Shown piece after piece: positions 4,721-38,018 of a DNA stretch of 64,000 bases (the first letter of the stretch is position 1; each line of letters begins with the position of its first letter). Made by a program: the position numbers and the translations under genes. Source of the DNA: a virus (lineage: Duplodnaviria; Heunggongvirae; Uroviricota; Caudoviricetes); IMG/VR virus record IMGVR_UViG_3300021255_001602, positions 1 to 64,000 of that record; one strand, written 5' to 3'. Under the pieces are notes generated by a model. It ran no database searches. It saw only the letters and a program-made list of their open reading frames with translations, and was not told where the DNA came from.

Positions 4721-5245
4721 GGGGTAATGTATGGAATTTCTTAAAGCAATAATAGCTATGTGGCTATTTTCGGTTTTTATGTTGATTATGTTTTGTCATT
4801 CTACTAAGTTCCCGTCTCAGGATACACTAGTTTTGGCTCTTGCAATTGTGGCTGCGGGTGCATTAGCACATAGTGAAAAATAAGGAAAGAAATATATGAG
4901 TACTAAAAGCTGGGATTTAGTCATGTTTATTATAATTGTGCTTAATCTGTGGTGTTTAAATTTTAGAGAAAAAGATAATTTGGCAGGAATTCTAATGCAT
5001 ACAGGTGTTATTGTATTGGTAATTATTAATTTAGCATTAAATAATAGGGGGTAACATATGGCAAAAAAGAAGAAGCAGAAAATTAAGATTTATTTTTATG
5101 ATGGTAAGTCTGATATTATTCCACAGAAATATTGGGATGATTATGAAGTAAATGACGGGCTTTTTGTCGTAAAGAAGAATGAAGCATGGATCGCATTTTA
5201 TAATTTGAACATTATTGATTGTGTAGTGGTACATTGAGGTGTGAT

Positions 5246-6055
5246 ATGGGAACAAAATATATTATAGAGGTGGAAGACAAACCGTTTGAGCTGTTGAGTA
5301 AAGACGGTTTCACATCCGAAAAACTTTTTAGGGTAAAAGGGTTTAACAGTCTTGTGTTCGATTGGAATGGATTGAATATGCTAACGCCTTATACTGAATC
5401 CAATCTTGAGTTAATAAAGGAAAAGGCTCACACAAATGGGTACGGCGAAGGTTATCAAGATGGATACAGCGAAGGAATGAACGATTATTTACAAAACCCT
5501 GAAGTAAAGGAAGAATCGGATAGGGCATACGCACATGGCTACTCTGATGCAGAATCAAAGTTTAATGAAATTAGGAAAGAGGCATATGACAAAGGATTTG
5601 AGGACGGAAAAGAATTATGCCCTCTTCCAAAGGTTTGTCATAATAATGCTTATCAGAAGGGCTTGTCCGATGCTTGGGAGGCGGCGAGGAAGCTGTGGGA
5701 AATCGACATAAGTACATTACATAAGATTTTTTACAAAGAAACAAGAATGGACTGCTATATGTATTATACCGCCACTGACGTTGTTGCCAAAATCAAAGAG
5801 TATGAGGACAAGCAAGAGGAAATCAAGATTGGGAATGAAGTCAATGCGTTTGAAAAGAAACCGTTTATCGTGACAGGTTTTGGCTATGGCGACAATGAAG
5901 AAGACGTTTACTGTTACGGATTCGTAACGGAAAACGGGATATCCACAAGTGCCAAGAAGAATAGCTGCGTGAGGACAGGTCGCCATTTTCCTGAAATCGC
6001 CGCTATCTTTGAGAAAACGAGGAATGAGTCGAACGCACAAATTGACACTGAATAA
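5246..6055 (+). CDS. hypothetical protein (269 aa)
   Basis: long ORF; internal ATG 5246 likelier than track start 5219. Confidence 0.5.
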   Translation: MGTKYIIEVEDKPFELLSKDGFTSEKLFRVKGFNSLVFDWNGLNMLTPYTESNLELIKEKAHTNGYGEGYQDGYSEGMNDYLQNPEVKEESDRAYAHGYSDAESKFNEIRKEAYDKGFEDGKELCPLPKVCHNNAYQKGLSDAWEAARKLWEIDISTLHKIFYKETRMDCYMYYTATDVVAKIKEYEDKQEEIKIGNEVNAFEKKPFIVTGFGYGDNEEDVYCYGFVTENGISTSAKKNSCVRTGRHFPEIAAIFEKTRNESNAQIDTE

Positions 6056-7002: not shown

Positions 7003-7247
7003 CTATTGAGGATATTAAGAATGGAATTCAGGATATCACGCTGTATTCTAAACATTTTGAGGGTAATAAAGAGGCTACTCTTCTCTTCTATTTTAATGTG
7101 TGTAAGGATGACGCATGGTATGAGGTTGAAGTAGGTGAATATGATCCATCTACGGATAGTTATCATGCTCTGGATGCACACAAATTCCGTTCAATTAAGA
7201 AAGCAATTGATTGGTGGAACAAGAATCTTGAGGGGGTTACAGAATGA
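6996..7247 (+). CDS. hypothetical protein (83 aa)
   Basis: overlapping start/stop with neighbours. Confidence 0.4.
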   Translation: MLTIEDIKNGIQDITLYSKHFEGNKEATLLFYFNVCKDDAWYEVEVGEYDPSTDSYHALDAHKFRSIKKAIDWWNKNLEGVTE

Positions 7248-7435
7248 CGTATAAAGAGCGGTATGAGCGTGATATGGATTATGCGTATGATCAGATTCAG
7301 AAAGCAACTGCTAATGCATGGAACCTGCCTGAATATAAAATGATTCAGGCATTAAATGTGGTTATGCGTTTAGTGGGCAGTACATATGAAATTGTTGCAG
7401 AGATTGGAGATAAACTAAATGGAGAATCAGAATAA
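7244..7435 (+). CDS. hypothetical protein (63 aa)
   Basis: ATGA overlap coupling. Confidence 0.35.
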   Translation: MTYKERYERDMDYAYDQIQKATANAWNLPEYKMIQALNVVMRLVGSTYEIVAEIGDKLNGESE

Positions 7436-7616
7436 AAAGCCAAATATTTATATTCCTCAGTGGCATGTAGAATCTATTTTATATTTTCTAAGAGGACATC
7501 TTATTGAGGGGGATTTAACTGCTAAGCAAATGGTATCAGCAATAGATAATTATTTAAGTGATGTAGAAAACGCAGAGACTGAAGAAATTGCAGTAACAAA
7601 GGAGAAGACAGTATGA
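7419..7616 (+). CDS. hypothetical protein (65 aa)
   Basis: ORF track. Confidence 0.35.
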   Translation: MENQNKKPNIYIPQWHVESILYFLRGHLIEGDLTAKQMVSAIDNYLSDVENAETEEIAVTKEKTV

Positions 7617-7706
7617 GTTTTATGATTGGATTCTTGTGTGGGGGATTTGTAACATTTGTTGGGGTGTTGGTTGGTCTTGTTATGTATCTTGAGAGAGAGG
7701 AAGCGA

Positions 7707-8207
7707 ATGAGGAATGATAGATTAGAAGTTTTAGTTCAGAAATATAAGGTAGAAGCAGATTGCCCTACTATTTTTTTGTCTGGTGCTATGACAGGATTGT
7801 CACAAAAAGAACAGACAGAATGGCGAGAAGTTCTAGAGAAACATTTTATGGGTCATTATCAATTCTTTGATCCAACTGTTTTTAATGCTGAGGACGAAAG
7901 TGATGAAGTTCAGCAGTTGGCTCATGAATATGATATTTGTGGAATTATTAATTGCAATTATTTTGTGGTGAATCTAAACAAAGCAAAAACATCTGTAGGT
8001 ACATGCCAAGAGATTATGTTGGCATGGCTACTAGGGAAAGAAATTATTGGATTTTTTGAAGAGCAGGATTTGGTTGAACCGCTTCATCCTTGGATTGAGA
8101 ACAAACTTAATAAGAAATTTGTAAGTATAAACACATTGATAATGTTCCTGACATTGGAATATTATAAGAAATGGTGGAAGGGAAGAAATGAAAGTAGAAG
8201 TATATAG
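7707..8207 (+). CDS. nucleoside 2-deoxyribosyltransferase-like protein
   Basis: IFLSGAMTG...VGTCQEIMLAWLLGKEIIGF resembles the NDT-family fold motifs (Rossmann-like, conserved Glu in the G-T-x-x-E-hG segment); internal ATG with GAGAGGAAG RBS. Confidence 0.45.
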   Translation: MRNDRLEVLVQKYKVEADCPTIFLSGAMTGLSQKEQTEWREVLEKHFMGHYQFFDPTVFNAEDESDEVQQLAHEYDICGIINCNYFVVNLNKAKTSVGTCQEIMLAWLLGKEIIGFFEEQDLVEPLHPWIENKLNKKFVSINTLIMFLTLEYYKKWWKGRNESRSI

Positions 8208-9349: not shown

Positions 9350-9625
9350 ATGATTAACGAAGAAAGACTTAAAGCGTTTATTAAAAGCAAGTGCTATGAT
9401 TTACTTAGTGTTAAACATTGTTATAAGTATGCCTGTGATTCTTTTCAGCACGCTGCTAACAATTATACGGTAGGGGTTCGTGCTTCTGATTCTATGACTA
9501 ACTGGTTAGAGAATCTGAAGCGTTGGGAAAGCAGATATACTGAGGAAGAATATCTGTTGAGCCAGTTCTGTCATCAACTTGGTGATGAGTATGTAGAGAT
9601 TTGGAATGAGATTGTGGGGGAATAA
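9350..9625 (+). CDS. hypothetical protein (91 aa)
   Basis: ORF track. Confidence 0.4.
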   Translation: MINEERLKAFIKSKCYDLLSVKHCYKYACDSFQHAANNYTVGVRASDSMTNWLENLKRWESRYTEEEYLLSQFCHQLGDEYVEIWNEIVGE

Positions 9626-10716
9626 TGTTAGAAGATACCAAAAAGACATGGAAAAATTATTTGGATGTGTTGTATTGTGTTTATATGCATGTAGCCCCCA
9701 ATGATAAGAGGTATATTGGTATAACGTCATTAAAGCCTGAAGTTAGATGGGCAAATGGAGAGGGATATCATACTCAAACTGTATTTTATAGGGCAATAAA
9801 AAAATATGGTTGGGATAATTTTAAACATATTATTTTGGAAGAAAAACTTTCTTTTGAACAAGCCTGTAAACGAGAACGCTATTATATTAAAAAATATAAA
9901 ACTAATTTAAACAGATGGCAACATCCTTCTTATGGATATAATCGAGATGATGGTGGTTATTCACATGTTGGTGTTCCTCTATCAGAAGATCATAAAGAAA
10001 AATTAAGAAATAATAAACATAATTTAGCTAAAAGAACTCCAATAGATTACTTTGATTTAAATGGTAAATACCTTGGTACGGCAATGACATATAATGAAGC
10101 ACAAGATATAACTGGCGTTAAAAAAACTAATATATTAAAAGTAGTTAAAGGTCGGCAATTAAGAGCTAGTAAATATATATTTCGGTATCATAAAGATACA
10201 CATGGAAATGATATCCCTGAATCAGAAATAAAAGGGATAAATAATATAATACGAAAAAAGTATAAGGCCAGTATTAAACAAATGATGCCATATGATGGAA
10301 TTGTGTATTGTTGGGATGTACATACCAAACAATTAATTGGAGTTTATGATGATGTTAGAGAAGCCGTGCATAGACTGTATTTAGGTACAGAAACTAATGA
10401 TACAGGCGCAAGACATCGTATATATCAATGTTTAAGAGGTGAAGTTCAAAGTGCTTGTGGCTTTCTGTGGACTAAAGATAAAAAACCACCAACGTTATCA
10501 AAAGATGACTATTCTGGTATGTTGCGTCCTGTTAATAAATATGATATAAACGGTAGTTATATTTGCACATTTAATTCTATAGCAGATGCTGGGCGCAATG
10601 TAGCAGAAGAAACCGGACAAAGTGCTGAAGCCGCACAAAGAAATATTAGGAAGGTATGTGATGGTATAAGGAGAAAATGCGGTGGTTTTGGATGGCAATG
10701 GGCAAATGCAAGTTAA
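9625..10716 (+). CDS. GIY-YIG homing endonuclease (free-standing), with NUMOD-like repeats
   Basis: VLYCVYMHV...KRYIGIT (GIY...YIG), YGWDNFKH, conserved R/E/N positions, C-terminal repeated DNA-binding-like modules; typical I-TevI/Seg-like architecture. Confidence 0.75.
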   Translation: MLEDTKKTWKNYLDVLYCVYMHVAPNDKRYIGITSLKPEVRWANGEGYHTQTVFYRAIKKYGWDNFKHIILEEKLSFEQACKRERYYIKKYKTNLNRWQHPSYGYNRDDGGYSHVGVPLSEDHKEKLRNNKHNLAKRTPIDYFDLNGKYLGTAMTYNEAQDITGVKKTNILKVVKGRQLRASKYIFRYHKDTHGNDIPESEIKGINNIIRKKYKASIKQMMPYDGIVYCWDVHTKQLIGVYDDVREAVHRLYLGTETNDTGARHRIYQCLRGEVQSACGFLWTKDKKPPTLSKDDYSGMLRPVNKYDINGSYICTFNSIADAGRNVAEETGQSAEAAQRNIRKVCDGIRRKCGGFGWQWANAS

Positions 10717-10733: not shown

Positions 10734-11348
10734 ATGAACAAAACGAAAATTCTAATGGTAATTGATATGCAAAACGATTTTATCACTGGCATCCTTGGTA
10801 CTCCAGAAGCACAGGTGATTGTGCCAAAGGTTGTTGAGAAGATTAAGGTTAAAGATTATGACCGTTTAATTTTTACGATGGATATGCATGACGAAGATGA
10901 GTATCCGCAAACAAGAGAAGGACGTTATTTACCAATTCCACATTGCCAAAGTGATAGAGGGTGGAATATCGTGAATGATATTTTAGATACTGTTCATGCG
11001 ACTGGACGTCATCCATGGATTAAAGGAAAAGAAGGATATAATACTATTGTTAAAGAAAATTTCGCAATTGAGGGGAATGTTTGGAGAACGGTGGTTAATC
11101 TTTTGAATTCATTTTTGGATATGTATGTTCCTCTTGATTATAAGGGAGAAGACCTTGAATTTGAATTCATAGGTGTTTGTACAGATATCTGTGTGGTCTC
11201 TAACGCATTCGCAATTCGTCAAGCATTCCCTGAAGCTGAAATCACTATTGATGCATCGTGTTGCGCTGGTACTACTCCAGAACTTCATAGAGCAGCATTA
11301 ATGACTATGAAATCTTGTCAGATGAACATTATTAACGAGGACATTTAA
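10734..11348 (+). CDS. isochorismatase-family cysteine hydrolase (PncA nicotinamidase-like)
   Basis: ILMVIDMQNDF (catalytic Asp), ...HC... and GVCTDICV (catalytic Cys) arrangement typical of nicotinamidase/isochorismatase fold. Confidence 0.6.
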   Translation: MNKTKILMVIDMQNDFITGILGTPEAQVIVPKVVEKIKVKDYDRLIFTMDMHDEDEYPQTREGRYLPIPHCQSDRGWNIVNDILDTVHATGRHPWIKGKEGYNTIVKENFAIEGNVWRTVVNLLNSFLDMYVPLDYKGEDLEFEFIGVCTDICVVSNAFAIRQAFPEAEITIDASCCAGTTPELHRAALMTMKSCQMNIINEDI

Positions 11349-12515: not shown

Positions 12516-12656
12516 ATCCTGTATTTATATTTTTAGTGATTCTATTTGCCATCTTTCTTTGGGGAGCGCTAAATATTTTCTTCCCAATCATTGGAGATGT
12601 GCTTTTAGATATGTGGAATGATATTAAGAGAAGTTTGAATGAAAAGGAGTAAAGAG

Positions 12657-13604
12657 ATGAAAGGTATTGTTGGTGGCGTTTTTTCGGCTATTGTAATTGC
12701 CCTTGTGGTTATTTGTTGTTTCAAATGTACAGAGAGGATTCCTGCGGGCTATGTAGGTGTCGTGTATAAGATGAATGGTGGTATTGATGACGAGGTTTTG
12801 TCTCAGGGATGGCATGTTGTTTCACCTACTAAACAGATTACACTGTATTCTATTGGTATTGAGCAGTCTTATCTTACTGCTGGAGACGATGGGGATTCTG
12901 AGGGCGATGATAGCTTTGAGGCTCCTTCGAAGGATGGTAAAGGTCTGAGGGTTGATGAGACATTTACTTACAGATATGATCCTGAACGGGTCGCTGAAAT
13001 CTTTACAAGATTCAAAGGTCGTTCTGGTAAGGAAGTACTTCGTACATTTATTAGACCGAATGTAATGTCTTGGACTAAGGAAGTCACGCCCAGATATTAT
13101 ATGACAGAGATCATCGGTGAACAGCGTGGTGCGGTTAATATTGCTCTTACTGAATATCTGAAAGAGAAATTTGAGCCTTACGGAATTATCATCGAGAGTG
13201 CGTCACTGATTGATGTCAATGTAGATGAAGAAACAGATAAGGCAATTCAGAAGAAGATTCAGGCTCAGCAGGATTTGGAAGTTGCTAAGATTAATAAGCA
13301 GACAGCTTCTGTAGATGCTGAAAAGGAAAAGGAAGTTGCGCTTATTAATGCTGAGAAAGATAAAGAGACAGCTAAGATCAATGCAGAAAAGGCAAAGATT
13401 AAAGCTGAGGGTGATGCAGAAGCTAAGAGAATCGCTGCTGAAGCTGAGGCAGAGGCTAATAAGAAAGTTGCTGGTTCGTTGACTCCAGAACTTATTGAGA
13501 AACAGAAAATTGAAAAGTGGAATGGTACTGTTCCTCAGATTCAGGGTAGTTCCACTCCTATTGTAGACACACGTAATCTTACAACAACAGAGGAAGGTGA
13601 TTAA
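12657..13604 (+). CDS. SPFH/band-7 (prohibitin/stomatin-like) membrane protein
   Basis: N-terminal TM helix, SPFH core, long A/E/K-rich coiled-coil tail (AEKEKEVALINAEKDKETAKINAEKAKIKAEGDAEAKRIAAEAEAEA). Confidence 0.7.
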   Translation: MKGIVGGVFSAIVIALVVICCFKCTERIPAGYVGVVYKMNGGIDDEVLSQGWHVVSPTKQITLYSIGIEQSYLTAGDDGDSEGDDSFEAPSKDGKGLRVDETFTYRYDPERVAEIFTRFKGRSGKEVLRTFIRPNVMSWTKEVTPRYYMTEIIGEQRGAVNIALTEYLKEKFEPYGIIIESASLIDVNVDEETDKAIQKKIQAQQDLEVAKINKQTASVDAEKEKEVALINAEKDKETAKINAEKAKIKAEGDAEAKRIAAEAEAEANKKVAGSLTPELIEKQKIEKWNGTVPQIQGSSTPIVDTRNLTTTEEGD

Positions 13605-14047: not shown

Positions 14048-14075
14048 TTGACAAATAAGCGTGGTTTGATAGAAT
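14048..14075 (+). promoter_or_regulatory. sigma-A-like promoter TTGACA-16-TAGAAT with extended -10 (TGaTAGAAT)
   Basis: consensus -35 at 14048; TG-extended -10 at ~14070; upstream of 14227 gene pair. Confidence 0.6.
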
Positions 14076-14226
14076 ATAATTAAATGTGAGGTGATTGTAT
14101 GAACAGATTGTACAAAGAACTTGACAGGATATTGTGGTCTATCCGACCACGCTTTTATCTCTGTCGTGATGTAATTGTAGTTAGATGGATGAAGTATGAA
14201 TGGTTGATTAAAAGGAGACATATGTT

Positions 14227-14991
14227 ATGAAGATTCAAGTAAGAAATGGCGCTTGGGAGACAAATAGTAGCAGCATGCATTCGTTGCTTATTATGAAAAA
14301 GCGTCAGACAATGACTCAGGCAGAGATCAGGGATGAGTTCTATCTTGAAGATTGGTACAAGGAGCGTGGAAATATTCTGCGCTTGGATTCTTGGGACAAT
14401 GATTTTGGTAGAGAATTCAGGGTACTCACGTCATTTAGGGACAAGTTGTCTTACGCAATGGCTGCCATGCTTGGAAACTGCTATAACTTAAAGAATTATA
14501 TTAAGGCTGGCAATGAGTTTATGTACACCTTTGAGCCGATGTTGAAAAAGTTAGTTGGTGTGGATGAAGTTGAAATGCCGATGGAGTCTGAGTTCTTTAG
14601 AGTTTACAGTGATACTGTAACAGATGATGTTGAGCAGGATTACGAGACTTATGAAGAAGTGCCCTATGAGGATTTGGTTTACGATGAGACCAAAGAGTAT
14701 GGGCGTTATAAGGAAGTTTGTAAGTCCGGTCGTAAGCAGATGGGGATTTATCTGGAAGTGCCGAAATTTGGTAGTATCGATCATCAATCCATGGGCTTGT
14801 TCCAGATGTTTCTTAGGAAGTATGGAATTACTATTGAAGAGTATTTAATTCGTAAGGATATCGTGGTCGTAGTAGATGGTGATGAGACTTGTATCTTTGG
14901 CACTATGATGGACGCTGGCCTTGTAGATAAGGATGCGATTCAGGTCTTATATTCTGTTAGCAAGTCTTATGAGAAGAAGGTGAAATCATGA
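14227..14991 (+). CDS. hypothetical protein, 'WETNSSSMHS' family paralog A
   Basis: N-terminal MKIQVRNGAWETNSSSMHS shared with the next gene. Confidence 0.5.
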   Translation: MKIQVRNGAWETNSSSMHSLLIMKKRQTMTQAEIRDEFYLEDWYKERGNILRLDSWDNDFGREFRVLTSFRDKLSYAMAAMLGNCYNLKNYIKAGNEFMYTFEPMLKKLVGVDEVEMPMESEFFRVYSDTVTDDVEQDYETYEEVPYEDLVYDETKEYGRYKEVCKSGRKQMGIYLEVPKFGSIDHQSMGLFQMFLRKYGITIEEYLIRKDIVVVVDGDETCIFGTMMDAGLVDKDAIQVLYSVSKSYEKKVKS

Positions 14992-15479
14992 GAAAGCAGA
15001 TTAGGTTAAGTGTGTGGGAAACAAATAGTAGTAGTGTGCATAGTTTCTGTTTCAATAAAAAAGGATTAGAGAAATGCCATATGAAAATCCATGAAGACGG
15101 CTATGTGCATATTACTTTGGATCAGTATTTTGGTAAGGATGAAGAACAGTTCTTTAATCAAAAAACTAAATTAAAGTATATCGTTACATGGTTGTATGCT
15201 TATTATGATTTTGATAAAGCAAAAATCAGAGATGAGGGATATGTTTTCAATAATTTTAATGAAGCATTCGGCAAGTATGTAACAGAACACAATGGCGTTT
15301 TGTGTCGTGGCGTTAAAGTAGATGAGTGTAAATGGGAAGGGGCTTATGATTATTTTGATCATCAACAGCTGAGTAGCGGTTGGTGGGATGATAATTGTAT
15401 AGTGAACCTTTGGGACTCTGAAGCATGTGTTGAGTTTATTTTTAATAAGTACGTTGGATTGGAGACAGGGTGTGATTAA
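14988..15479 (+). CDS. hypothetical protein, 'WETNSSSVHS' family paralog B
   Basis: N-terminal MRKQIRLSVWETNSSSVHS; ATGA overlap with paralog A. Confidence 0.5.
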   Translation: MRKQIRLSVWETNSSSVHSFCFNKKGLEKCHMKIHEDGYVHITLDQYFGKDEEQFFNQKTKLKYIVTWLYAYYDFDKAKIRDEGYVFNNFNEAFGKYVTEHNGVLCRGVKVDECKWEGAYDYFDHQQLSSGWWDDNCIVNLWDSEACVEFIFNKYVGLETGCD

Positions 15480-16517
15480 ATGATTAAAACCAGAGATGAT
15501 ATTGGTAATATGTTGGCTTTTGATGAACGTTATAGTTTTCTTGGCAAAGAGCCTCTTGTGGGAAATATTGTTCTTTTAGGACTTGGTGGTAGTTATGCCT
15601 ATGGTACTAACAATGAAGACAGTGATATTGATATTCGTGGTATAGCTACTCATAATGCTCAGGACATTTTGACCCGTAAAGGATTTGAGCAGGTGGTTAA
15701 CGAGGAAACTGATACAACTATTTATTCTCTTGAAAAGATTGTGAACCTTCTTTCTAATTGTAATCCTAATACAATTGAGATTCTTGGCCTTGAGCCTTGG
15801 CAGTATTTCTATGTAACAGATATCGGTCAGGCGCTCATTGATAATAGAGATATGTTTCTTTCTAAGCGTGCCATCCATTCATTTGGAGGTTATGCGGGAA
15901 GCCAGCTTAGACGTTTAGAGAATCGGGCTGCTAGAACTATGGAGCAATCTAAGCGTGAGGAGTTTATTTTGCGCAGCATTGAAAATGCTAAATATACATT
16001 CCCCGCAAAGTTTTTTGAACATCCAGAAGACGCAATTAAGCTATATCTTGATGAAGCAGTAAATCCTGATTATGATACAGAGATTTTTATGGATGTTGAT
16101 TTAAAGCATTATCCCCTTCGAGATTATAAATCAATGTGGTCAGAGATGCTTGCAATTGTCAAAGAGTATGCAAAAATCGGGGCTAGGAATCGTAAAGCAA
16201 TTGAACGTGGTAAGCTAGGTAAGCACATGATGCATCTGGTTCGGCTTTATCTGATGTGTTTTGATATTCTTGAAAAAGGCGAGATTATTACTTATCGTGA
16301 GAAAGAGCATGACTTTCTTATGGATATTAGGAATGGTAAGTATCTTGATGATGAAGATCATCCGGTCGCAGAATTCTATGATATTGTAGATGATTTAGAA
16401 AATAAGTTACAATATTGGAAAGAACATACAAGTCTTCCCGCAAATCCTGATTATGATAGGATTAATAAGTTTCTTGCCGAGGCAAACTGGGCAGTGGTTA
16501 AGGAGTATAAAAAATGA
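15480..16517 (+). CDS. Pol-beta-superfamily nucleotidyltransferase with helical C-terminal domain
   Basis: LLGLGGSYAYGTNNEDSDIDIRGI = GS-x(9-13)-[DE]h[DE]h NTase signature (as in KNTase/minimal NTases/CD-NTases); start 1 nt after upstream stop. Confidence 0.55.
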   Translation: MIKTRDDIGNMLAFDERYSFLGKEPLVGNIVLLGLGGSYAYGTNNEDSDIDIRGIATHNAQDILTRKGFEQVVNEETDTTIYSLEKIVNLLSNCNPNTIEILGLEPWQYFYVTDIGQALIDNRDMFLSKRAIHSFGGYAGSQLRRLENRAARTMEQSKREEFILRSIENAKYTFPAKFFEHPEDAIKLYLDEAVNPDYDTEIFMDVDLKHYPLRDYKSMWSEMLAIVKEYAKIGARNRKAIERGKLGKHMMHLVRLYLMCFDILEKGEIITYREKEHDFLMDIRNGKYLDDEDHPVAEFYDIVDDLENKLQYWKEHTSLPANPDYDRINKFLAEANWAVVKEYKK

Positions 16518-17434
16518 AAGAGTTAGCACAATATCAGAATGGTAATACAATTACTACCATTTACGATGATGGAACAAAGATTCATGTAACAGAAGATGAT
16601 GATTTCCGCTTTCAGTACAGTGAATCCTGTGATATTCAAATCTCACAGTGCTGTGATAATGGGTGTGAGTTTTGTTATGCAGGTTGCTCTCCTACTGGTA
16701 AGCATGGTGATTTGACCAGTTGGAGATTCTTGCATACCATGCATCCTTATACGGAGATTGCTATCAATCTTCAGTTTCCTACTCCACCTGATTTGATGGA
16801 ATTCCTGTATACTATGAAAGCACAGAATGTATTTGTGAATGCCACCATTAATCAGAAGCATTTTATGAGCGATTACGGTCGGCAGTTTGTGCGTTTTCTT
16901 ATGAAGATGGGACTGATTAAAGGGATTGGTATTTCATTGGTTGATCCTACACAGGAAGGATTCATTGAAGCCATTAAAGAATTTCCAAATGCTATCATCC
17001 ATGTAATTGCTGGGGTTATTAATCCTGAGGATATTAATGCTCTGGGTGATCATGATTTGAAGATTCTTATTCTGGGATATAAGCAGAAGGGTCGTGGTCT
17101 TCCTTATTATAAGGATAATAACCAAATGATTCTGGATAATATTGCATGGCTTGAGTCTGGGATTGTAGAGCTTGCTGACAAATTTGAAATCGTGTCCTTT
17201 GATAATTTGGCGCTTGAACAGCTTCATATGAGAGATAAGCTTACAGATGAAGAGTGGGAACTGTATTATGCAGGTGAAGACGGGACAGTTACTTTTTATA
17301 TTGATTTGGTAAGTGGAACATTCGCAAGAAGTAGTCTTTCTGAAATCCATTACCCTATTGGTAATAAGAGCATTGATGATATGTTTCAGATTGTAAGAGA
17401 GGAAGTTATGAATGAGTCAAAGGAATTGTCCTAA
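16514..17434 (+). CDS. radical SAM enzyme (CxxxCxxC)
   Basis: SQCCDNGCEFCYAG: C-x3-C-x2-C cluster near N-terminus in a ~300-aa protein; ATGA overlap with NTase gene. Confidence 0.55.
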   Translation: MKELAQYQNGNTITTIYDDGTKIHVTEDDDFRFQYSESCDIQISQCCDNGCEFCYAGCSPTGKHGDLTSWRFLHTMHPYTEIAINLQFPTPPDLMEFLYTMKAQNVFVNATINQKHFMSDYGRQFVRFLMKMGLIKGIGISLVDPTQEGFIEAIKEFPNAIIHVIAGVINPEDINALGDHDLKILILGYKQKGRGLPYYKDNNQMILDNIAWLESGIVELADKFEIVSFDNLALEQLHMRDKLTDEEWELYYAGEDGTVTFYIDLVSGTFARSSLSEIHYPIGNKSIDDMFQIVREEVMNESKELS

Positions 17435-17750
17435 CTGTGGGGCACCATACAAAACAGAATTAAATACTTGTCCATATTGTGGAACTTCGTATTTTGATAT
17501 GAGTGCTATTGATGTCAGTGAGAATAAGCCATTTTATTTGAAACTGAAAATGAATGGTATGGTATTTACTTCTAAAGTTATTGCTGAGCCTGATATACAG
17601 ATAGAAGTTAATCAAGATGATTATTGTGCTTATAATCATAATGGAGACAAGATATATAGAATTGTAGCGAATCGATATTTAGATATAGATATGCATTTTA
17701 CATCTGTACATGATTTTAAAGAACCATTATATACTGTGGAGGTTAAATAA
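17412..17750 (+). CDS. zinc-ribbon protein (CPNCG...CPYCG)
   Basis: 112 aa; overlaps upstream gene end. Confidence 0.45.
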   Translation: MSQRNCPNCGAPYKTELNTCPYCGTSYFDMSAIDVSENKPFYLKLKMNGMVFTSKVIAEPDIQIEVNQDDYCAYNHNGDKIYRIVANRYLDIDMHFTSVHDFKEPLYTVEVK

Positions 17751-17947
17751 TGACTTGGTTTGAAACGAAACTGGATGGCTATGATTTTTGTGTGCAGTCT
17801 GGAGATTACGAGGTAAGACGTAAGGGTGAACAGGTCGGATTGTATTATTATGATCATAGAATTGGTTGGTGCAACGATGTTAAAAAGGGAATGTTTAGAG
17901 CATGGGTTCTTGAGTTGTATGGGAGAAAAAGAAATGGATACTGTTGA
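17750..17947 (+). CDS. hypothetical protein (65 aa)
   Basis: ORF track. Confidence 0.3.
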   Translation: MTWFETKLDGYDFCVQSGDYEVRRKGEQVGLYYYDHRIGWCNDVKKGMFRAWVLELYGRKRNGYC

Positions 17948-18527
17948 GTACAATAAAGTATTGGTTCAAAAGTACCCTTGGCTTTATCCACATTATCAAT
18001 GGAGTGGTGAAAAAGTTGAGGACTATGATTATACATGGACTGAATTAGATGCATTGTCTGAAGGTTGGCGTGAAGCGTTCGGGGAATTGCTTTGTGAGGA
18101 AATTCAAGAAGAGTTAGAGAAGTTTGATTACGCAGATAAATATAGTATTGCACAGATAAAAAGCAAATTCGGTGAAATGCGCTGGTATGATAATGGATGT
18201 CCTGATAAATGTAGAGTCCATGAAATTATTGAGAATTATGCGGCTATAAGTGGTTATATTTGTGAAGCATGTGGTGAACTTGATGTACCTAGTACTGACG
18301 GCTGGATTATGCCAGTGTGTAAAGAATGCATTAAAAAGATGAATTATAAAGACCCTGATGCATATTGGGAGCAGATTAGTAAAGAACAGTTTCCTCATAC
18401 TCTCCCGCTTACACGTAGGTATAGACGGTGGTCTCCTGACAAGGATGAGTGGGAAGAGTTTGTTGTAGATTTGACACCAACAGTTCAGAAGATTCGGAAG
18501 CGATATGCAGAAAGGCATGGTGATTGA
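17934..18527 (+). CDS. hypothetical Cys-rich protein (CEACG...CKEC)
   Basis: ATG 17934 overlapping previous stop. Confidence 0.4.
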   Translation: MDTVEYNKVLVQKYPWLYPHYQWSGEKVEDYDYTWTELDALSEGWREAFGELLCEEIQEELEKFDYADKYSIAQIKSKFGEMRWYDNGCPDKCRVHEIIENYAAISGYICEACGELDVPSTDGWIMPVCKECIKKMNYKDPDAYWEQISKEQFPHTLPLTRRYRRWSPDKDEWEEFVVDLTPTVQKIRKRYAERHGD

Positions 18528-19745
18528 ATGTCAGCGTCACTTTATTTTGATAATGCTGCTACTATGCAGCCTGATGAAAAAATGATACAGGAGTATGGCT
18601 CCTTGTGTAGGGAATATTGGTGGAACCCCTCTTCTATCTCTCAGGGATCGATGGAGACACGACAGGCTATTGAGGATGTACGACAGGATATTTTGAAGCG
18701 TATTAATGGTCAGGATGGTGATAAAATTATTTTCACATCTGGAGGTACAGAAGCCAATAATCTAGCGATTAAGGGGTGGTGTTGTGAGAAGTATCATCAT
18801 TGGAATGCTCCTCGTGGGTCTTCTAAGATGTTTGATTATTATCGTTTAACACCATCAATTTTTGTCTCAAGTCTTGAGCATCCTTCTGTTATTAATCCCG
18901 CTGTATGGCTTTATGAAATGGGGATTGCCAATAGTGTGAATATAGTGAAATGTCATGATAGCGGTATGGTTGATTTAGAATCATTAGAGGAGCGTATTCG
19001 TTATACACCAAATGTCAAACAATATCCAATTCTTGTGTCAATTATGATGGCAAATAATGAAATTGGGTCAATTAATGATATTAAGGCAATTAGTAAAATT
19101 GTACACAAGTATGATGGAGTGTTGCATGTAGATGCAGTTCAGGCATTTACACATATGAAAATTGATGTACAAGATATGGGTATTGATATGATGTCGGTAT
19201 CTGGTCATAAATTTGGTGCGCCTCATGGGGTCGGCTTTTTGTATGTGCGAAATGGTATTGAAATTAATCCTCTTCTGCATGGTGGTGGTCAGGAAAAAGG
19301 AATGCGGTCAGGCACTGAAGATGCGCCCTCTATTATTATGATGGGTCGGGCTATGGATCAAGCATACGAAAATATGGATAAAGATAATAGGAATTTGAAA
19401 AGATGTAAAAGTCTTTTGTTGGATTTCCTAATGACAAGATATGACGTAAAGATTAATAGTCCTTATAACGGATTGGCGAATATTGTCAATGTTACTTTTA
19501 ATGGTATTGATAATGAACAGCTGATAACTAATCTAGATATTTTTGAAGGTTGCCAAGTGTCTGCTGGTAGTGCTTGTCATGCGGGGGTTAAAGAACCTAG
19601 TAAGGTATTGCAGGAAATTGGGTTAACAGAAAAAGAGATTAATAGCACTATTCGTATTAGTATGGATAGGGACGTGACTGAAAACGAACTTCAGTTGTTT
19701 GTGCTTGGTCTACAAACTCAAATTAATAAGCTTAAATTGCTATAA
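18528..19745 (+). CDS. cysteine desulfurase (class V aminotransferase, NifS/IscS-like)
   Basis: SGGTEANN, PLP-lysine SVSGHKFGAPHGVGFLY, catalytic Cys loop SAGSACHAG; 405 aa. Confidence 0.8.
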   Translation: MSASLYFDNAATMQPDEKMIQEYGSLCREYWWNPSSISQGSMETRQAIEDVRQDILKRINGQDGDKIIFTSGGTEANNLAIKGWCCEKYHHWNAPRGSSKMFDYYRLTPSIFVSSLEHPSVINPAVWLYEMGIANSVNIVKCHDSGMVDLESLEERIRYTPNVKQYPILVSIMMANNEIGSINDIKAISKIVHKYDGVLHVDAVQAFTHMKIDVQDMGIDMMSVSGHKFGAPHGVGFLYVRNGIEINPLLHGGGQEKGMRSGTEDAPSIIMMGRAMDQAYENMDKDNRNLKRCKSLLLDFLMTRYDVKINSPYNGLANIVNVTFNGIDNEQLITNLDIFEGCQVSAGSACHAGVKEPSKVLQEIGLTEKEINSTIRISMDRDVTENELQLFVLGLQTQINKLKLL

Positions 19746-19765: not shown

Positions 19766-22408
19766 ATGGGTGAATACGGAATAAAAATTAAAAACATCGT
19801 TGTCGGAAGCCTTTTAGAGAAAAATGCTGGTGTCCGTGATCATATTGATATGACGGACGCCATGTTGTGTAATAGTCTTTTTCTTGATTACATGAAGAAA
19901 CATGGGCTTGATATATATAAAGATACATCAACCAGAGACGTAATTGTTCTTGATTTTAAATATGGCACACGTAGCTATGAACAAGAAAAGGCGCATTTAA
20001 AGAAATGCATTAAAGATACAGAGAAGAATGATAAGTTAACTGAAGAAGAAAAAACACAAAAGATACAATATTTTAATGAGTTATTAGTGAGAGCTGAAGA
20101 AAATCAGGACAAGTATGTTAGATATAATCGGGCTGAAGCAAGGGATAAGGTTTATACCGAGGGTGTTGATGTGACTTATCCTGCCGCTCGTAAAAATCAG
20201 GAACCACAGACAATACATTATAAGAGGTTGTTCAGGACACCGGGCAAGGCTAAAAAGGGAACTGTTGATTTTATTAGAGAAGAATTGTATGACATAGCTA
20301 AAGAATATTTATATATGGGGATTGATTTAGATGAATATGAAAATCCTCTTCTGGTTGAAGCTGAAGCATATTCTTCTTTGGCAACTAGTACTATTATTGG
20401 GAAGATTAAGGTTAATCCCTATGATATATTAGTACTTGATGATTATGATTCTTTTTGTTTTAAAGATATTATAAGCATTGAAAAGGGTGATGATGGACAT
20501 GTTCATGCAGTAAAACGTGAAAATGCTAAAATTGGTAATTCAATGTTTGACGGGCAAGGTTTAATTGATCATAACTTTGTTCATGCGCAGTTTCCTAAAA
20601 CGAATGGATTTGTTCTTTTAAGAAATCACTTTTGTAAAATGGCGTGTTTTGACACAGATATTCAGGGTTTTTTTAGAGATTATGCTGCTGATCATGATAT
20701 TGATTATGAGACATGGAAGCTGACAGATATATTTGGTCATGAGCATTTGGTTAAAGACGTAAAAATTATTTGCCATGAATCTGCAATGAAATGGTGCAAA
20801 TTTATAAATGATAGAATTAATTATGATTATTGGTGTCAACGAGTTATTGAAGATAATGATAGTTATTTTGGAATTGTTAAGACGGCGAAAAAATCTAAGT
20901 TGGGTGATGTTCAGAAAATGAGTTATCAGCATGTAAACTGCATGTCTGAGAATATTATGGAAGATGTAATTCAATGTACAAAAGAATATATTAAGGAATT
21001 AAAAACAAATAACGAAGCGTTTCTTGACTATCTAAAAAAGGGACAAAATTTTTCCAATGATTATGAAGTATTAATTGCTTTGGTTAAACACAATCCAGAT
21101 TTTATTAATTCTAGTTATTTCCGAGATCGTAGGAAATTAATTATTAATACATATGCTAAAATGGCGAAAACAGGGCGAATTATTAATGAGGGAGATAATA
21201 TGGTTATTGTTGGGTCTCCTTATGCCGAGTTGTTGTTTGCTGTTGGAGAAGACCCAGAAAGTGACCCAACCTTTGAACAAGAAGAATTGGCTATCCAGTG
21301 TTATAGTGAAAGATTTAAAGATGGAGAATACTTAGCAGAATTTCGTAGCCCATTTAATTCGCAAAATTCATTGGGGTATTTACACAATCATTTAGATTGG
21401 AGGATGAAAAAGTATTTTTATTTGGGTGAGAATTGTATTGCTATTAATATGAGACAAAATGATTTTCAAGACGCTAATAATGGCAGCGATCAGGATTCTG
21501 ACACAATTTTAACGTTAAACCATTTATCGATTGTAGGCCATGCTAAATATTGTCAAACGGCTTTTCCAACTGTGAAGAATAATATTCCAAAAGATACTAC
21601 CCGCTACAAAAATACAGCATTAGATTTATCATATATAGATAATAAATTAATGTCAAGTCAGATGGGTATTGGATTGTCTAGTAACTTGGCACAAATAGCC
21701 CTCTCCTATTCTTATTCATTTCCAGATCAAAAATATAAAGATTATGTTTGTATTCTGGCTGTACTTGCTCAGATATACATAGATTCTAGCAAACGTGCTT
21801 ATGATATTGATTTAAATGAGGAAACGGACAGGATACGCAGAGATTTGAATATTAAACAAAATGGATATCCCATGTTTCTTAAACCTATTCAAAAATATAA
21901 TAATAAACGTCTTGGAATGAGTACGGCTAAAATTAAAGAAGGACGTTATAATCCATCGTTGAATTGTCCTATGAATTATTTGTATAACGCTGATATTAAT
22001 CCCGCTATGACATATGAAAGAGAGATTCCTATGGATTATTTTTTTATTAGGCATGATAGGGACTTACCAGTGAGGCGCAGTAAGAAAATAGAAAAGCTGA
22101 TAGAAAAGTATAGTTTTAAATTGGGACAATATCAACAAAATATAGTAGATGATTCTGATGAAGATATTTTATTATTAAGAAATGATTTTGATGAATTAAT
22201 TAATGACATTAAAGAAATTAGTTTAACAAAGAAATATCAAGGATTAATGTCTTTTTTAATTGATCGTGCTTTTTGTATCACACCTTATTTAAAAAGGAAC
22301 AGAGCATTGGTTGCAAGTAAGATGAATAATAATCGTGCATTATTGCTTAAAGTATTATACACAATATCTCCAGAACAATTTTTAGAATGTTTTAAAGGCT
22401 GTAATTAA
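19766..22408 (+). CDS. large hypothetical protein (880 aa), no recognisable motif
   Basis: uninterrupted ORF with strong RBS AAGGAGG; His/Cys-containing blocks (DGHVHAV, HESAMKWC) but no motif I can assign. Confidence 0.6.
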   Translation: MGEYGIKIKNIVVGSLLEKNAGVRDHIDMTDAMLCNSLFLDYMKKHGLDIYKDTSTRDVIVLDFKYGTRSYEQEKAHLKKCIKDTEKNDKLTEEEKTQKIQYFNELLVRAEENQDKYVRYNRAEARDKVYTEGVDVTYPAARKNQEPQTIHYKRLFRTPGKAKKGTVDFIREELYDIAKEYLYMGIDLDEYENPLLVEAEAYSSLATSTIIGKIKVNPYDILVLDDYDSFCFKDIISIEKGDDGHVHAVKRENAKIGNSMFDGQGLIDHNFVHAQFPKTNGFVLLRNHFCKMACFDTDIQGFFRDYAADHDIDYETWKLTDIFGHEHLVKDVKIICHESAMKWCKFINDRINYDYWCQRVIEDNDSYFGIVKTAKKSKLGDVQKMSYQHVNCMSENIMEDVIQCTKEYIKELKTNNEAFLDYLKKGQNFSNDYEVLIALVKHNPDFINSSYFRDRRKLIINTYAKMAKTGRIINEGDNMVIVGSPYAELLFAVGEDPESDPTFEQEELAIQCYSERFKDGEYLAEFRSPFNSQNSLGYLHNHLDWRMKKYFYLGENCIAINMRQNDFQDANNGSDQDSDTILTLNHLSIVGHAKYCQTAFPTVKNNIPKDTTRYKNTALDLSYIDNKLMSSQMGIGLSSNLAQIALSYSYSFPDQKYKDYVCILAVLAQIYIDSSKRAYDIDLNEETDRIRRDLNIKQNGYPMFLKPIQKYNNKRLGMSTAKIKEGRYNPSLNCPMNYLYNADINPAMTYEREIPMDYFFIRHDRDLPVRRSKKIEKLIEKYSFKLGQYQQNIVDDSDEDILLLRNDFDELINDIKEISLTKKYQGLMSFLIDRAFCITPYLKRNRALVASKMNNNRALLLKVLYTISPEQFLECFKGCN

Positions 22409-29734: not shown

Positions 29735-30958
29735 ATGGATAAACAATTATTAAATAAATTACCTACTGAATCAGAAGAACAATATATTTGGAGAATTGGG
29801 CATTATATTGGTGACGGGCTGATTGATTCATGGAAAGACGTGGCTGATACAGTAAATGCTCAGTTATATACAGATGAAAGCCAATGGAAAAATAGCGATA
29901 CTTATAGACGTCAAGTTTCTACTGCTAAAAGATATTATGATAATGTATTTAGTGCTATGGTTTCAGATGCTGAATACGATCCTAATATTCAGAAGCAACT
30001 TGAGGAACTTAGACGTGAAAGAATTAAAATACAGACGTTAAATGTTGAGCGCAACAGGATTGATAGAGAACAGGCTCGTAGGGAATTATTCTTTGAACAA
30101 ATTCATAACTTGGCTCAGACTATTCCTGTGCCAGAGTTTGAAGCGGTTCAGGTTAACGATGACAGTGAAGAGGCATACGTTTTGTGTCTTGCAGATATTC
30201 ATGCAGGTGCAAAGTTTACATCTTTAACTAATGAATATTCATTGGATATTATGAAGGATAGATTTGATCTGTTGGTTGTGGATATTGTGAACTTTATTCG
30301 TTCTCATAAGGTTAAAGAATTGACGGTACTTGGTTTGGGTGATTTTGTTCAAGGTCTCATTCATGCTAATGATTTAAAGATTAATGATTCTTCTATGGTG
30401 GTTGCTGTTGTTGAAGTATCTAAGACTGTGGCTGCATTCTTAACAGAATTGTCTAAATATGCTTATATTAAATATTATCATGTAGGCTCTTCTAATCATT
30501 CTCAGCTTAGGGTACTTGGTACAAGACCTAATGAGCTGATGGACGAAGACGTGGAATATATTATCGGGCATTATATTGAAGATTTGTGTGTACCAAATAA
30601 GCGGATTACAGTTAATACCCCTAAAGAGGGGGAATGGTTTACTAAAATTGATGTGACTGGATTCAATGTAATTGCAATGCATGGTCATCAGATTAAGAGT
30701 TTTGAGAATGCGTTAAGTATGTTGTCTGTTAAACAGGATGAGATGGTTGATTACCTTATTATTGGGCATACGCATACCAGTAAAGAAATCAGTGGTTCTG
30801 AAGGATGCTGTCATGATACTGAGGTTTTAGTGTGTCCTAGTTTTGTGGGATGTGATCCTTATGCAGATAGTATTTTTAAAGGTAGTAAACCTGCTGTAAA
30901 GATTTTTGGTTTTCATCATATTTATGGTCATAATGAATCATACAAATTTATATTATAA
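29735..30958 (+). CDS. calcineurin-like metallophosphoesterase (SbcD/Mre11-like nuclease or phosphatase)
   Basis: motifs LADIHAG (D-x-H), GLGDFVQG (GDxxD), SSNHS (GNH[DE]), AMHGH, IIGHTH in canonical order. Confidence 0.65.
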   Translation: MDKQLLNKLPTESEEQYIWRIGHYIGDGLIDSWKDVADTVNAQLYTDESQWKNSDTYRRQVSTAKRYYDNVFSAMVSDAEYDPNIQKQLEELRRERIKIQTLNVERNRIDREQARRELFFEQIHNLAQTIPVPEFEAVQVNDDSEEAYVLCLADIHAGAKFTSLTNEYSLDIMKDRFDLLVVDIVNFIRSHKVKELTVLGLGDFVQGLIHANDLKINDSSMVVAVVEVSKTVAAFLTELSKYAYIKYYHVGSSNHSQLRVLGTRPNELMDEDVEYIIGHYIEDLCVPNKRITVNTPKEGEWFTKIDVTGFNVIAMHGHQIKSFENALSMLSVKQDEMVDYLIIGHTHTSKEISGSEGCCHDTEVLVCPSFVGCDPYADSIFKGSKPAVKIFGFHHIYGHNESYKFIL

Positions 30959-30962
30959 ATAG

Positions 30963-30998
30963 GAAGAGATGCGTGTGAACGTGTCTCTTCTTTATTAT
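30963..30998 (+). terminator. intrinsic terminator (GAAGAGA...TCTCTTC hairpin plus TTTATTATAT)
   Basis: 7-bp stem flanking GC-rich loop, followed by T/A-rich tract, immediately upstream of tRNA. Confidence 0.45.
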
Positions 30999-31000
30999 AT

Positions 31001-31077
31001 CGCGGGATGGAGAAGTTCGGTTTAACTCACTAGCTTCATGGGCTAGAGATTCGGGGGTTCAAATCCCCCTCCCGTTA
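31001..31077 (+). tRNA. tRNA with anticodon CAT (Met / possibly Ile2-lysidine type)
   Basis: cloverleaf: acceptor CGCGGGA/TCCCGTT (pos1 mismatch), anticodon stem CTAGC/GCTAG with loop TTCATGG, T-arm GGGGG-TTCAAAT-CCCCC; boundaries +/-2 nt. Confidence 0.55.
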
Positions 31078-31129
31078 TTTCGTATGTAACTTTTAATGAA
31101 TCAAACAGATAAAAAAGGAAGGTGATTGC

Positions 31130-34005: not shown

Positions 34006-34015
34006 GGAGGTGCAT

Positions 34016-35608: not shown

Positions 35609-35623
35609 AAGGAGGTTTCAAAA

Positions 35624-35812
35624 ATGGAAAAAATGCCGTTTATTAAAACCTCTGATGAAGAGGTGGCTGAGTTATTTAGACAAGCTGGTTATCCTGAAAT
35701 GGAGAAAGAGGGAAGCCAGTTTGTATTTGTTAATATAGGTCGTTTTGAAAATGGGGAGTTCAGTACTGTCCCTGTAGATAAATGCACCTTCTCAAGAACG
35801 GTATGTCTGTAA
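35624..35812 (+). CDS. hypothetical small protein
   Basis: 62-aa ORF with RBS AAGGAGG between portal and scaffold genes. Confidence 0.25.
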   Translation: MEKMPFIKTSDEEVAELFRQAGYPEMEKEGSQFVFVNIGRFENGEFSTVPVDKCTFSRTVCL

Positions 35813-35823
35813 GGGGGTGTGTT

Positions 35824-37488: not shown

Positions 37489-37523
37489 TTTAAATTAAAT
37501 TTATAGAAAGGAGATTTAAAGCT

Positions 37524-37991: not shown

Positions 37992-38018
37992 TAGACTAAG
38001 AAAGGAGGATAAAGCGAT

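Follow-up and report, generated by a model that had tools for sequence, protein, structure and literature searches.

In the anSME/AtsB systems, a radical SAM enzyme forms the formylglycine of Ser- or Cys-type sulfatases within a conserved motif close to their N-terminus. Radical SAM maturases of RiPPs, such as SuiB, SkfB, EpeE/YydG, PqqE, and CteB, work on short precursor peptides, and the viperins, including those of prokaryotes, to our knowledge need no partner protein. Two further groups of enzymes are relevant to the locus described here: RlaP of P. fluorescens and T4 NrdC.11, nucleotidyltransferases of the PF10127 family with a Pol-beta GS...DxD motif, and the class I cysteine desulfurases DndA/SspA, NifS, and IscS, which share a PLP Lys and a catalytic Cys and which, in the DndA/SspA systems, are accompanied by DndC/D/E or SspB/C/D.

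The window analyzed here, a 64-kb stretch of phage DNA, contains relatives of several of these enzymes in one tightly packed run of genes, including an orphan radical SAM enzyme (rSAM) and acidic proteins of a family that we have named NSSS, defined by the N-terminus MKxQ[IV]RxGx[FW]ETNSSSxHS. This pair departs from anSME/AtsB in that the rSAM family has three invariant Cys only and none of the SPASM auxiliary clusters found there, that the sequence in NSSS is ETNSSSxH instead of the sulfatase motif C/S-x-P-x-R, and that the NSSS model matched no solved fold, sulfatase folds included. In contrast to the short peptides of the RiPP maturases, the substrates would here be folded NSSS proteins of 100–330 aa whose conserved part amounts to only about 20 residues, probably including the modified site, and this rSAM-NSSS pair is phage-borne, with no RRE/PqqD, SPASM, or twitch motif detected in the rSAM. 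Sequence similarity to viperins is confined to the cluster motif (E = 0.53), and, unlike viperins, the rSAM family is encoded by phages and goes together with NSSS proteins.

A conserved unit within an early operon

The block belongs to an early operon in an SPbeta-like phage of the gut or rumen and consists of one conserved system with lineage-specific additions. A preliminary description had delimited a module at 15480–19745, and ORF calls in the window recover every gene and motif that it listed there, in the tight packing that it reported. The packed run begins at 14227, however, and extends past the desulfurase gene into a gene for an 880-aa protein (19766–22408); the near-obligate NSSS partners upstream were left out of this description. 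The first gene, on the plus strand like the promoter upstream and the other genes up to 19745, encodes NSSS_A (14227–14991; 254 aa, pI 4.9), which carries the invariant N-terminal tag MKIQVRNGAWETNSSSMHS and is proposed as a candidate substrate or partner of the rSAM. It overlaps by 4 nt the gene for its 163-aa paralogue NSSS_B (14988–15479; tag MRKQIRLSVWETNSSSVHS), which has the same motif, belongs to the same C-terminal sequence family, and directly abuts the RlaP gene. About 150 nt upstream of the run is a putative sigma-70-like promoter with an extended −10 element (14048–14075; TTGACA-16 nt-TG-TAGAAT), so designated only for its strong consensus match (11/12 in a consensus scan). The conserved unit is the orphan rSAM (16514–17434) together with the two acidic NSSS proteins (14227–15479), while RlaP, the zinc-ribbon genes, and the cysteine desulfurase are add-ons of this phage's own lineage.

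The gene for the 306-aa rSAM overlaps the stop of RlaP by ATGA, as had been noted before. Its CCDNGCEFC sequence contains the cluster motif C47-x3-C51-x2-C54 (C47-DNG-C51-EF-C54) with the aromatic F53, in keeping with the CX3CXPhiC requirement, and the enzyme is predicted to carry out reductive SAM cleavage to a 5'-deoxyadenosyl radical. The protein has the partial TIM-barrel fold of radical SAM enzymes, and its architecture comprises a predicted N-terminal 5-strand beta domain, the single CX3CX2C cluster, and a C-terminal extension that bears the motif SFDNLAxxQL. The three motif Cys are invariant in 62 homologues of 34–59% identity, no other Cys is invariant in the family (C58 is kept only in close relatives), and the C-terminal Cys-rich SPASM/twitch motif for auxiliary Fe-S cluster(s) is absent across the family. 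The window enzyme has no Pfam match, PF04055 included, and its N-terminal 45 residues contain no Pfam domain, RRE and PqqD included. Among 10 fused homologues scanned, PF04055 matches 6 and exceeds its cut-off of 29.5 only in P0244 (31.3 bits). Neither the rSAM family, with its roughly 1,700 clusters at 50% identity, nor the NSSS family is represented by a Pfam or NCBIfam model.

Linkage of the radical SAM enzyme to tagged proteins

The association between rSAM and NSSS was followed in both directions, using a forward set of 97 loci found through rSAM and a reverse set of 80 viral loci retrieved with the motif [FW]ETNSSSxH. NSSS ORFs flank rSAM in about 92 of the 97 forward loci; a same-strand NSSS gene beside rSAM was identified by HMM in 90 of them, with one more (L048) recovered by motif search and a gene fragment present at the edge of L014. 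In the reverse test, rSAM is present in 77 of the 80 loci, with a median rSAM-NSSS gap of 24 nt that is no longer than 100 nt for 74 of 80 rSAM ORFs. Each rSAM is accompanied by 1–6 NSSS paralogues. RlaP is present near rSAM in 22 of the 97 loci, and no other neighbour family exceeds 15 of them. Adjacent partner genes with a common recognition sequence, the arrangement by which RiPP maturases are recognized, are thus found for rSAM and NSSS, and the two also occur as natural single-chain fusions (P0160, P0179, P0216, P0218, and P0244). The pair has a wide distribution: it occurs in phages that infect Bacillota, Bacteroidota (Lak megaphages), and cyanobacteria (Ma-LMM01) and on contigs that bin with CPR bacteria or with archaea, and at least 597 stretches in IMG/VR match the tag motif.

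The core motif is present in 283 of 292 distinct NSSS sequences. These 283 show no variation at E, N, S, and S, and they retain R at −5 in 282 cases and S5 and H7 of the tag in 277 cases each. All Ser codon families are in use at the three tag Ser positions, which indicates that selection acts on the protein. The tag is also the sole low-confidence part at the NSSS N-terminus in an AF2 model. With column entropy controlled for, the positions that flank the tag showed no significant covariation with the rSAM N-domain (p = 0.26), a point against the modification proposed below.

Possible roles of the tag and its neighbours

Our reading of this linkage, which we hold tentatively and at somewhat under even chances, is that rSAM modifies or docks the NSSS N-terminal tag, with NifS, RlaP, and the zinc ribbons as additions within this clade. 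If so, docking of the flexible tag on rSAM, with the N-terminal beta domain as a possible site, would be followed by reductive cleavage of SAM at the [4Fe-4S] cluster, and the resulting 5'-deoxyadenosyl radical would take a hydrogen within E-T-N-S-S to yield a post-translational modification. Candidate chemistries are epimerisation, a cross-link, or an oxidation of Ser like that by anSME. This modification would mature the NSSS proteins, and their variable acidic C-terminal domains would then deliver the effect, probably in host takeover or counter-defence. A more specific version, which we put forward with greater reserve, is that rSAM and NSSS constitute a previously undescribed and very widespread phage protein-maturation system, 'tag and arm', in which several acidic effector domains, unrelated to one another, share a universal 19-residue N-terminal tag that one rSAM would equip with a new modification. 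If rSAM truly modifies ETNSSSxH, viruses would encode a radical-SAM protein modification that is new, present in gut and rumen phages, Lak megaphages, and Ma-LMM01, a cultured phage of Microcystis. An orphan enzyme family would then gain a function, as would the large NSSS family, which has neither a Pfam model nor a solved-fold match, and a set of proteins that probably act as effectors in host takeover or counter-defence would come into view.

It is possible, if on the unlikely side, that NSSS proteins are instead subunits or adaptors whose N-terminus is a docking or active-site element, so that an rSAM hetero-oligomer acts on a third molecule, whether a nucleotide as in viperins, tRNA/RNA, or a host protein, selected by the variable C-terminal domains. 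Sequence alone does not distinguish a substrate from a partner subunit. As natural fusions characterize subunits more than they do enzymes and their substrates, the NSSS-rSAM fusions count against the substrate reading. So do the invariant polar residues beyond the tag in family-1 NSSS, to which both window proteins belong (K24, E33, R35, E37, R62, R169, D185, H186, S188, and D219), since these have the look of an enzyme active site. The nearby occurrence of the RNA-repair enzyme RlaP would also suit a complex with an RNA target. On the other hand, the C-terminal parts of NSSS comprise no fewer than 3 large and 10 small families without BLAST similarity to one another, and this diversity, together with the number of paralogues per rSAM and the presence of one family only in some loci, fits substrates better than fixed subunits. 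NSSS are moreover uniformly acidic (median pI 4.7, none above 8), which argues against RNA or DNA binding.

The RlaP-family protein of the window (15480–16517; 345 aa, GLGGSYAYG...EDSDIDI) resembles RlaP of P. fluorescens and T4 NrdC.11 in its PF10127 score (80.5 bits, E = 2e-22, cut-off 23) and Pol-beta motif, and matches phrog_388 at E = 4e-54. Members of this family are biochemically characterized repair enzymes that add 1–2 NMPs to RNA 3'-OH ends (PMC12776372). In contrast to known RlaPs, its gene lies between the NSSS genes and rSAM with no adjacent RNA ligase or RtcB, neither of which was found among the neighbours or the window ORFs scanned, all of them within the first 41 kb (out of a genome of ~154 kb). 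RlaP lies 5 kb upstream of rSAM in sister clades, but it adjoins the rSAM-NSSS pair in at least 4 distant clades, with a 2-nt gap in one archaeal-MAG contig, and this recurrence leaves room for a functional link to RNA. In our reading it is a neighbour of rSAM that varies with the lineage, and it probably acts separately as a repair enzyme that adds nucleotides to damaged RNA 3' ends.

A further add-on is a NifS/IscS-type class I cysteine desulfurase (18528–19745; 405 aa; Aminotran_5, PF00266, E = 5e-62) with A. fulgidus IscS2 as its best PDB match (4r5f, E = 4e-61), relative to which it carries a 23-residue insertion at about residues 86–108. In alignments with IscS structures, its SGHK (PLP Lys) and SAGSAC (catalytic Cys) motifs fall at the PLP Lys and in the region of the active-site Cys. 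Its scores remain below the NCBIfam equivalog cut-offs for NifS (305.8 vs 530.75), DndA (257.6 vs 480), and IscS (251.8 vs 643.2). NifS accompanies rSAM in 12 of 97 forward and 5 of 80 reverse loci, all in its own clade, and direct or near adjacency to rSAM is seen only there. We infer that it probably supplies persulfide sulfur to build or repair the rSAM [4Fe-4S] cluster, and sulfur might also enter the rSAM chemistry of the NifS-bearing clade.

The preliminary description was right in its Pol-beta nucleotidyltransferase, rSAM, and NifS domain calls, including the intact NifS active-site motifs, but its suggestion that these enzymes form one nucleic-acid modification pathway is not supported, given how rarely NifS and RlaP occur with rSAM and that NSSS proteins are its near-obligate partners. 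That nucleotidyltransferase, rSAM, zinc ribbons, and NifS jointly perform a sulfur-dependent modification of DNA, tRNA, or nucleotides is in our view improbable. The genes are tightly packed and partly overlapping, NifS is intact and sits directly beside rSAM, following it, in a sister subclade, it matches the PADLOC SspA and DndA models, and RlaP acts on RNA (PMC12776372). Yet NifS is missing from about 88% of rSAM loci and from members of its own clade (L012, L014, and L016), RlaP is distant in sister phages, and the lack of auxiliary-cluster cysteines in the rSAM family means that there is no sulfur-donor cluster of the MiaB, RimO, LipA, or BioB type. Nor does the 64-kb window contain a PP-loop ATPase (no SGGxDS motif), a rhodanese, or the DndC/D/E or SspB/C/D partners, and the sole PADLOC match is the SspA/DndA-like NifS itself; together with the lack of a plausible glycyl-radical enzyme, this agrees with the earlier view that the layout is not that of Dnd, Que, or NrdDG. 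A phage NifS beside an rSAM should accordingly not be read by default as a DNA or tRNA thiolation pathway.

A short conserved N-terminus on unrelated C-terminal domains in paralogue arrays is also the architecture of polymorphic effectors and internal proteins, and the tag could serve in trafficking or packaging, much as a capsid-targeting sequence does in the internal proteins of T4, with a coincidental link to rSAM. We regard this as very improbable, as the tag is invariant across unrelated virions (SPbeta-like siphovirus, Lak megaphage, and Ma-LMM01 myovirus), the linkage to rSAM holds in both directions and extends to fusions, and the genes lie in an early, non-structural region. That rSAM is an NrdG/PFL-AE-type activase for a glycyl-radical enzyme, with NifS as general Fe-S support, can be practically dismissed, since the window contains no NrdD or PFL (its sole RVxG[YFW] match is in an ORF at 5219–6055 that at 278 aa is too short to be NrdD), and rSAM, with additional domains at both its N- and its C-terminus, is double the size of NrdG, and the activases are far removed from its best structural matches.

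Zinc-ribbon and small genes

Between rSAM and NifS, where two or three zinc-ribbon proteins had been described, two proteins have the Cys pairs of a zinc ribbon and a third does not. The first (17412–17750; 112 aa; PF13248, E = 8e-7) has CPNCG...CPYCG followed by a beta-rich C-terminus, and its gene overlaps rSAM by 23 nt; it occurs in 8 of 97 loci, all in its own phage clade, including members without NifS. The second is an acidic 197-aa protein with a CEACG...CKEC zinc ribbon (17934–18527), the start of which is placed at 17934, not 17826, by the gene call in an identical contig. It is present in 6 of 97 loci only, so that the zinc-ribbon genes together are found in 6–8 of 97 loci, almost all in their own clade. 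In a single, weak case (P0126), an rSAM homologue carries a domain homologous to this protein as a C-terminal fusion. The small basic 65-aa ORF between the two (17750–17947) has no zinc motif and no family match, and it is conserved in close relatives (L003, L004, L007, L008, L009, and L015) at 50–86% identity by tblastn.

Conservation of the gene block

The open reading frames between 15480 and 19745, which a preliminary description had assigned to a nucleotidyltransferase, a radical SAM enzyme, zinc-ribbon proteins and a cysteine desulfurase, are all found where it placed them. They encode a 345-aa Pol-beta nucleotidyltransferase, RlaP (15480-16517; Pfam PF10127, 80.5 bits against a cut-off of 23; phrog_388), the 306-aa radical SAM enzyme, hereafter rSAM (16514-17434; C47-x3-C51-x2-C54), which overlaps the RlaP stop in an ATGA, a zinc-ribbon protein of 112 aa (17412-17750; PF13248), a 65-aa ORF (17750-17947), a zinc-ribbon protein of 197 aa (17934-18527; CEACG...CKEC; start taken from the gene call of an identical contig) and a 405-aa NifS/IscS-type cysteine desulfurase, NifS (18528-19745; Aminotran_5, 5e-62), whose SGHK and SAGSAC motifs align with IscS structures (4r5f best, E = 4e-61). 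The packed run does not begin at 15480. It is headed by a paralogous gene pair, NSSS_A (14227-14991) and NSSS_B (14988-15479), and downstream it extends into the gene for an 880-aa protein (19766-22408). A strong sigma-70-like promoter is predicted from sequence at 14048-14075, an Rfam scan of 12-23 kb returned no riboswitch and no other RNA family, and no phage record matched the block in megablast. Between the predicted promoter and the start of NSSS_A, the 5' leader contains a small hairpin rich in GC, with a T-rich tract after it (14133-14151). This element has no match in Rfam and might be an attenuator or a processing site.

The ORFs of 97 loci found through rSAM (2 phage records, 4 metagenome contigs, 11 IMG/VR contigs and 80 GTDB genome contigs) were searched with iterated HMMs, one for each gene of the window. 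NSSS genes were present in 90 of the 97, RlaP in 22, the 880-aa gene in 14, NifS in 12, the 112-aa zinc-ribbon protein in 8 and the 197-aa one in 6, and the families ranked alike when neighbours up to 6 kb from rSAM were clustered de novo. The other 148 neighbour families, surveyed with Pfam, comprised mixed phage replication, methylase and helicase genes and no third conserved partner. Among the remaining loci, L048 has an NSSS gene at its contig edge, L014 starts within an NSSS gene, and rSAM stands at a contig end in four of the five others without NSSS. The fifth, L079, has a lone rSAM homologue (7105-7983) among bacterial AraA-like and AraD-like arabinose-utilisation genes of a Christensenellaceae MAG. 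In the reverse direction, the pattern [FW]ETNSSSxH matched at least 597 stretches in IMG/VR, and rSAM was found in 77 of the 80 confirmed loci, with 1-4 NSSS copies per locus and a median NSSS-rSAM gap of 24 nt. The comparison shows that rSAM and the tagged NSSS proteins are a two-component system.

The NSSS tag and the radical SAM enzyme

NSSS proteins are uniformly acidic (median pI 4.7) and share the N-terminal tag MKxQ[IV]RxGx[FW]ETNSSSxHS, the core motif beginning about 10 residues from the initiator Met. The core motif occurs in 283 of 292 distinct sequences. All 283 share the E, the N, and the first and second Ser; 282 retain the R at -5, 277 the third Ser and 277 the His; position -1 is F, W, Y or H without exception. 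Each Ser position uses all six Ser codons, which places the constraint on the protein rather than on the DNA. Beyond the tag, three large families, of 56, 44 and 23 members, can be told apart from one another and from ten small ones. BLAST found no similarity between any of these families, and NSSS_A and NSSS_B both belong to family 1. These two have no match in Pfam, NCBIfam or PADLOC, and scanning 157 members of the family (10 + 147) with Pfam gave weak or isolated matches only, none of them meaningful; the sole real family match is to phrog_28997, of unknown function, in 64 of the 147. Arrays of four to six NSSS paralogues stand beside one rSAM in Lak-B7 (L002, 8909-10983) and in the loci L017 (5768-8988), L033 (441-4416) and L080 (5010-7804). 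L080 and another locus, L061, are on contigs binned with Methanomassiliicoccaceae archaea, and other such loci come from Saccharibacteria and Absconditabacterales MAGs.

The rSAM family numbers 1,729 representatives at 50% identity, 550 of them with E < 1e-30, and its members among phage records belong to Lak megaphages, at 44-46% identity, and to the group of the Microcystis phage Ma-LMM01, with gp128 at 34%. Other carriers are prophage-like loci of Eubacterium plexicaudatum ASF492, Acetivibrio ethanolgignens ACET-33324 and Lachnospiraceae MD308; in Ma-LMM01 the genes of interest are gp128 and gp130. Across 62 diverse homologues the only invariant cysteines are the three of the motif, so the family has neither a SPASM nor a twitch auxiliary cluster. 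The match of the family profile to PDB sequences is confined to the cluster motif, and PDB sequence searches with rSAM alone, the rSAM profile, RlaP, the 880-aa protein and the NSSS profile likewise gave matches at the level of that motif at most. Structural comparison of rSAM gave 13.6 with viperin, 13.1 with SuiB, 12.9 with EpeE, 12.8 with SkfB, 12.3 with anSME and 8.7 with PFL-AE. The NrdG, Dnd and Que readings were rejected. The window holds no PP-loop motif, no Dnd/Ssp partner and no plausible NrdD; its single RVxG[YFW] match lies in an ORF whose 278 aa are too few for NrdD.

Some rSAM homologues contain inteins (P0154, P0172, P0256, P0269 and P0162; locus L054, 292-2331). One insertion site immediately precedes the third Cys of CX3CX2C (CF[VI][AV]GTK...VHN|C), where the long versions carry a LAGLIDADG-type endonuclease and P0172 carries a mini-intein, and a second lies in the GGE-type SAM motif (EIA|CLSGDT...THN|CGGGN). 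In another homologue, P0126 (470 aa), the rSAM continues C-terminally in a fused domain that is homologous to the 197-aa zinc-ribbon protein of the window (17934-18527), a single case that could be a gene-calling artefact.

What the enzyme may act on

We favour the reading in which rSAM would modify the NSSS tag, because several unrelated proteins have the tag alone in common, because each enzyme is accompanied by one to six NSSS paralogues, because the tag is flexible in the predicted structure, and because the nearest structural relatives of rSAM are protein- or peptide-modifying radical SAM enzymes. The main rival holds that the NSSS proteins are subunits or adaptors and that rSAM acts on another molecule; it draws on natural fusions of NSSS and rSAM in a single chain (P0160, P0179, P0216, P0218 and P0244, with P0266 in the reverse order) and on the enzyme-like conserved residues of family 1. 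When tag-flanking residues were compared with rSAM columns by mutual information, residues 24-30 of rSAM stood out at first; with column entropy controlled, and phylogeny uncontrolled, the signal was not significant (p = 0.26). The single thiolation pathway first proposed for the block is unlikely on the comparative evidence.

A full-text search of the searchable literature turned up no account of either the motif or the rSAM-NSSS pair. Radical SAM enzymes that have dedicated protein partners are a known kind; this particular family, together with its tag and its distribution among phages, appears to be undescribed.

Accessory genes and phage context

Apart from one partial match at a locus edge, NifS-bearing loci are confined to this phage's own clade. 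In a sister subclade (L005, L010, L013 and L018) NifS follows rSAM immediately, in the window's subclade three small genes intervene, and in L012, L014 and L016 it is absent, which makes NifS dispensable for the rSAM-NSSS pair. Since rSAM lacks a sacrificial auxiliary cluster, NifS would more plausibly serve in Fe-S supply than in sulfur insertion. Compared with IscS2 of A. fulgidus, NifS of this phage contains an insertion of 23 residues at positions ~86-108 (CCEKYHHWNAPRGSSKMFDYYRLT).

Enzymes of the RlaP family extend RNA 3'-OH ends by one or two NMPs; the family is tied to RNA repair and includes T4 NrdC.11 (PMC12776372; PMC7824862). In sister phages RlaP lies 5 kb upstream, and it recurs upstream of the rSAM-NSSS pair in several distant clades, including a contig from an archaeal MAG; there may be a looser link to the pair.

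The phage itself is SPbeta-like, its order of 880-aa gene, HU, YonJ-like, tRNA-Met, YonG-like, terminase, portal, YonD-like and YonB-like paralleling yonO-yonN-...-yonJ-yonG-yonF-yonE-yonD-yonB of SPBc2. Judged by its synteny with yonO-yonN(HU), the 880-aa protein (19766-22408) corresponds in position to the single-subunit RNA polymerase YonO of SPbeta. It has no Pfam match, and its BLASTP alignment with YonO is weak yet collinear (E = 0.21); both proteins have RSP followed after ~45 residues by DxDxD, as GSDQDSD in the 880-aa protein and FDNDGD in YonO. Its gene is broken into two or three ORFs in L005, L006, L007 and L010, and in L005 and L006 the gaps hold HNH-domain ORFs. The SPbeta-like structural module spans 29735-39122, with Pfam matches to YonJ_CC, YonG_N/C, YonD_N and YonB together with terminase and portal in SPbeta order, and the tRNA-Met (CAT; 31000-31078) sits between the yonJ-like and yonG-like genes. 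Upstream of the block are genes for a GIY-YIG/NUMOD homing endonuclease (9625-10716), a nucleoside 2-deoxyribosyltransferase-like protein (7656-8207), an isochorismatase-domain protein (10734-11348) and an SPFH/Band 7 protein (12639-13604). The equivalent region of a relative, L003, encodes a metallo-beta-lactamase protein of 452 aa that matches Apyc1 (anti-Pycsar) weakly.
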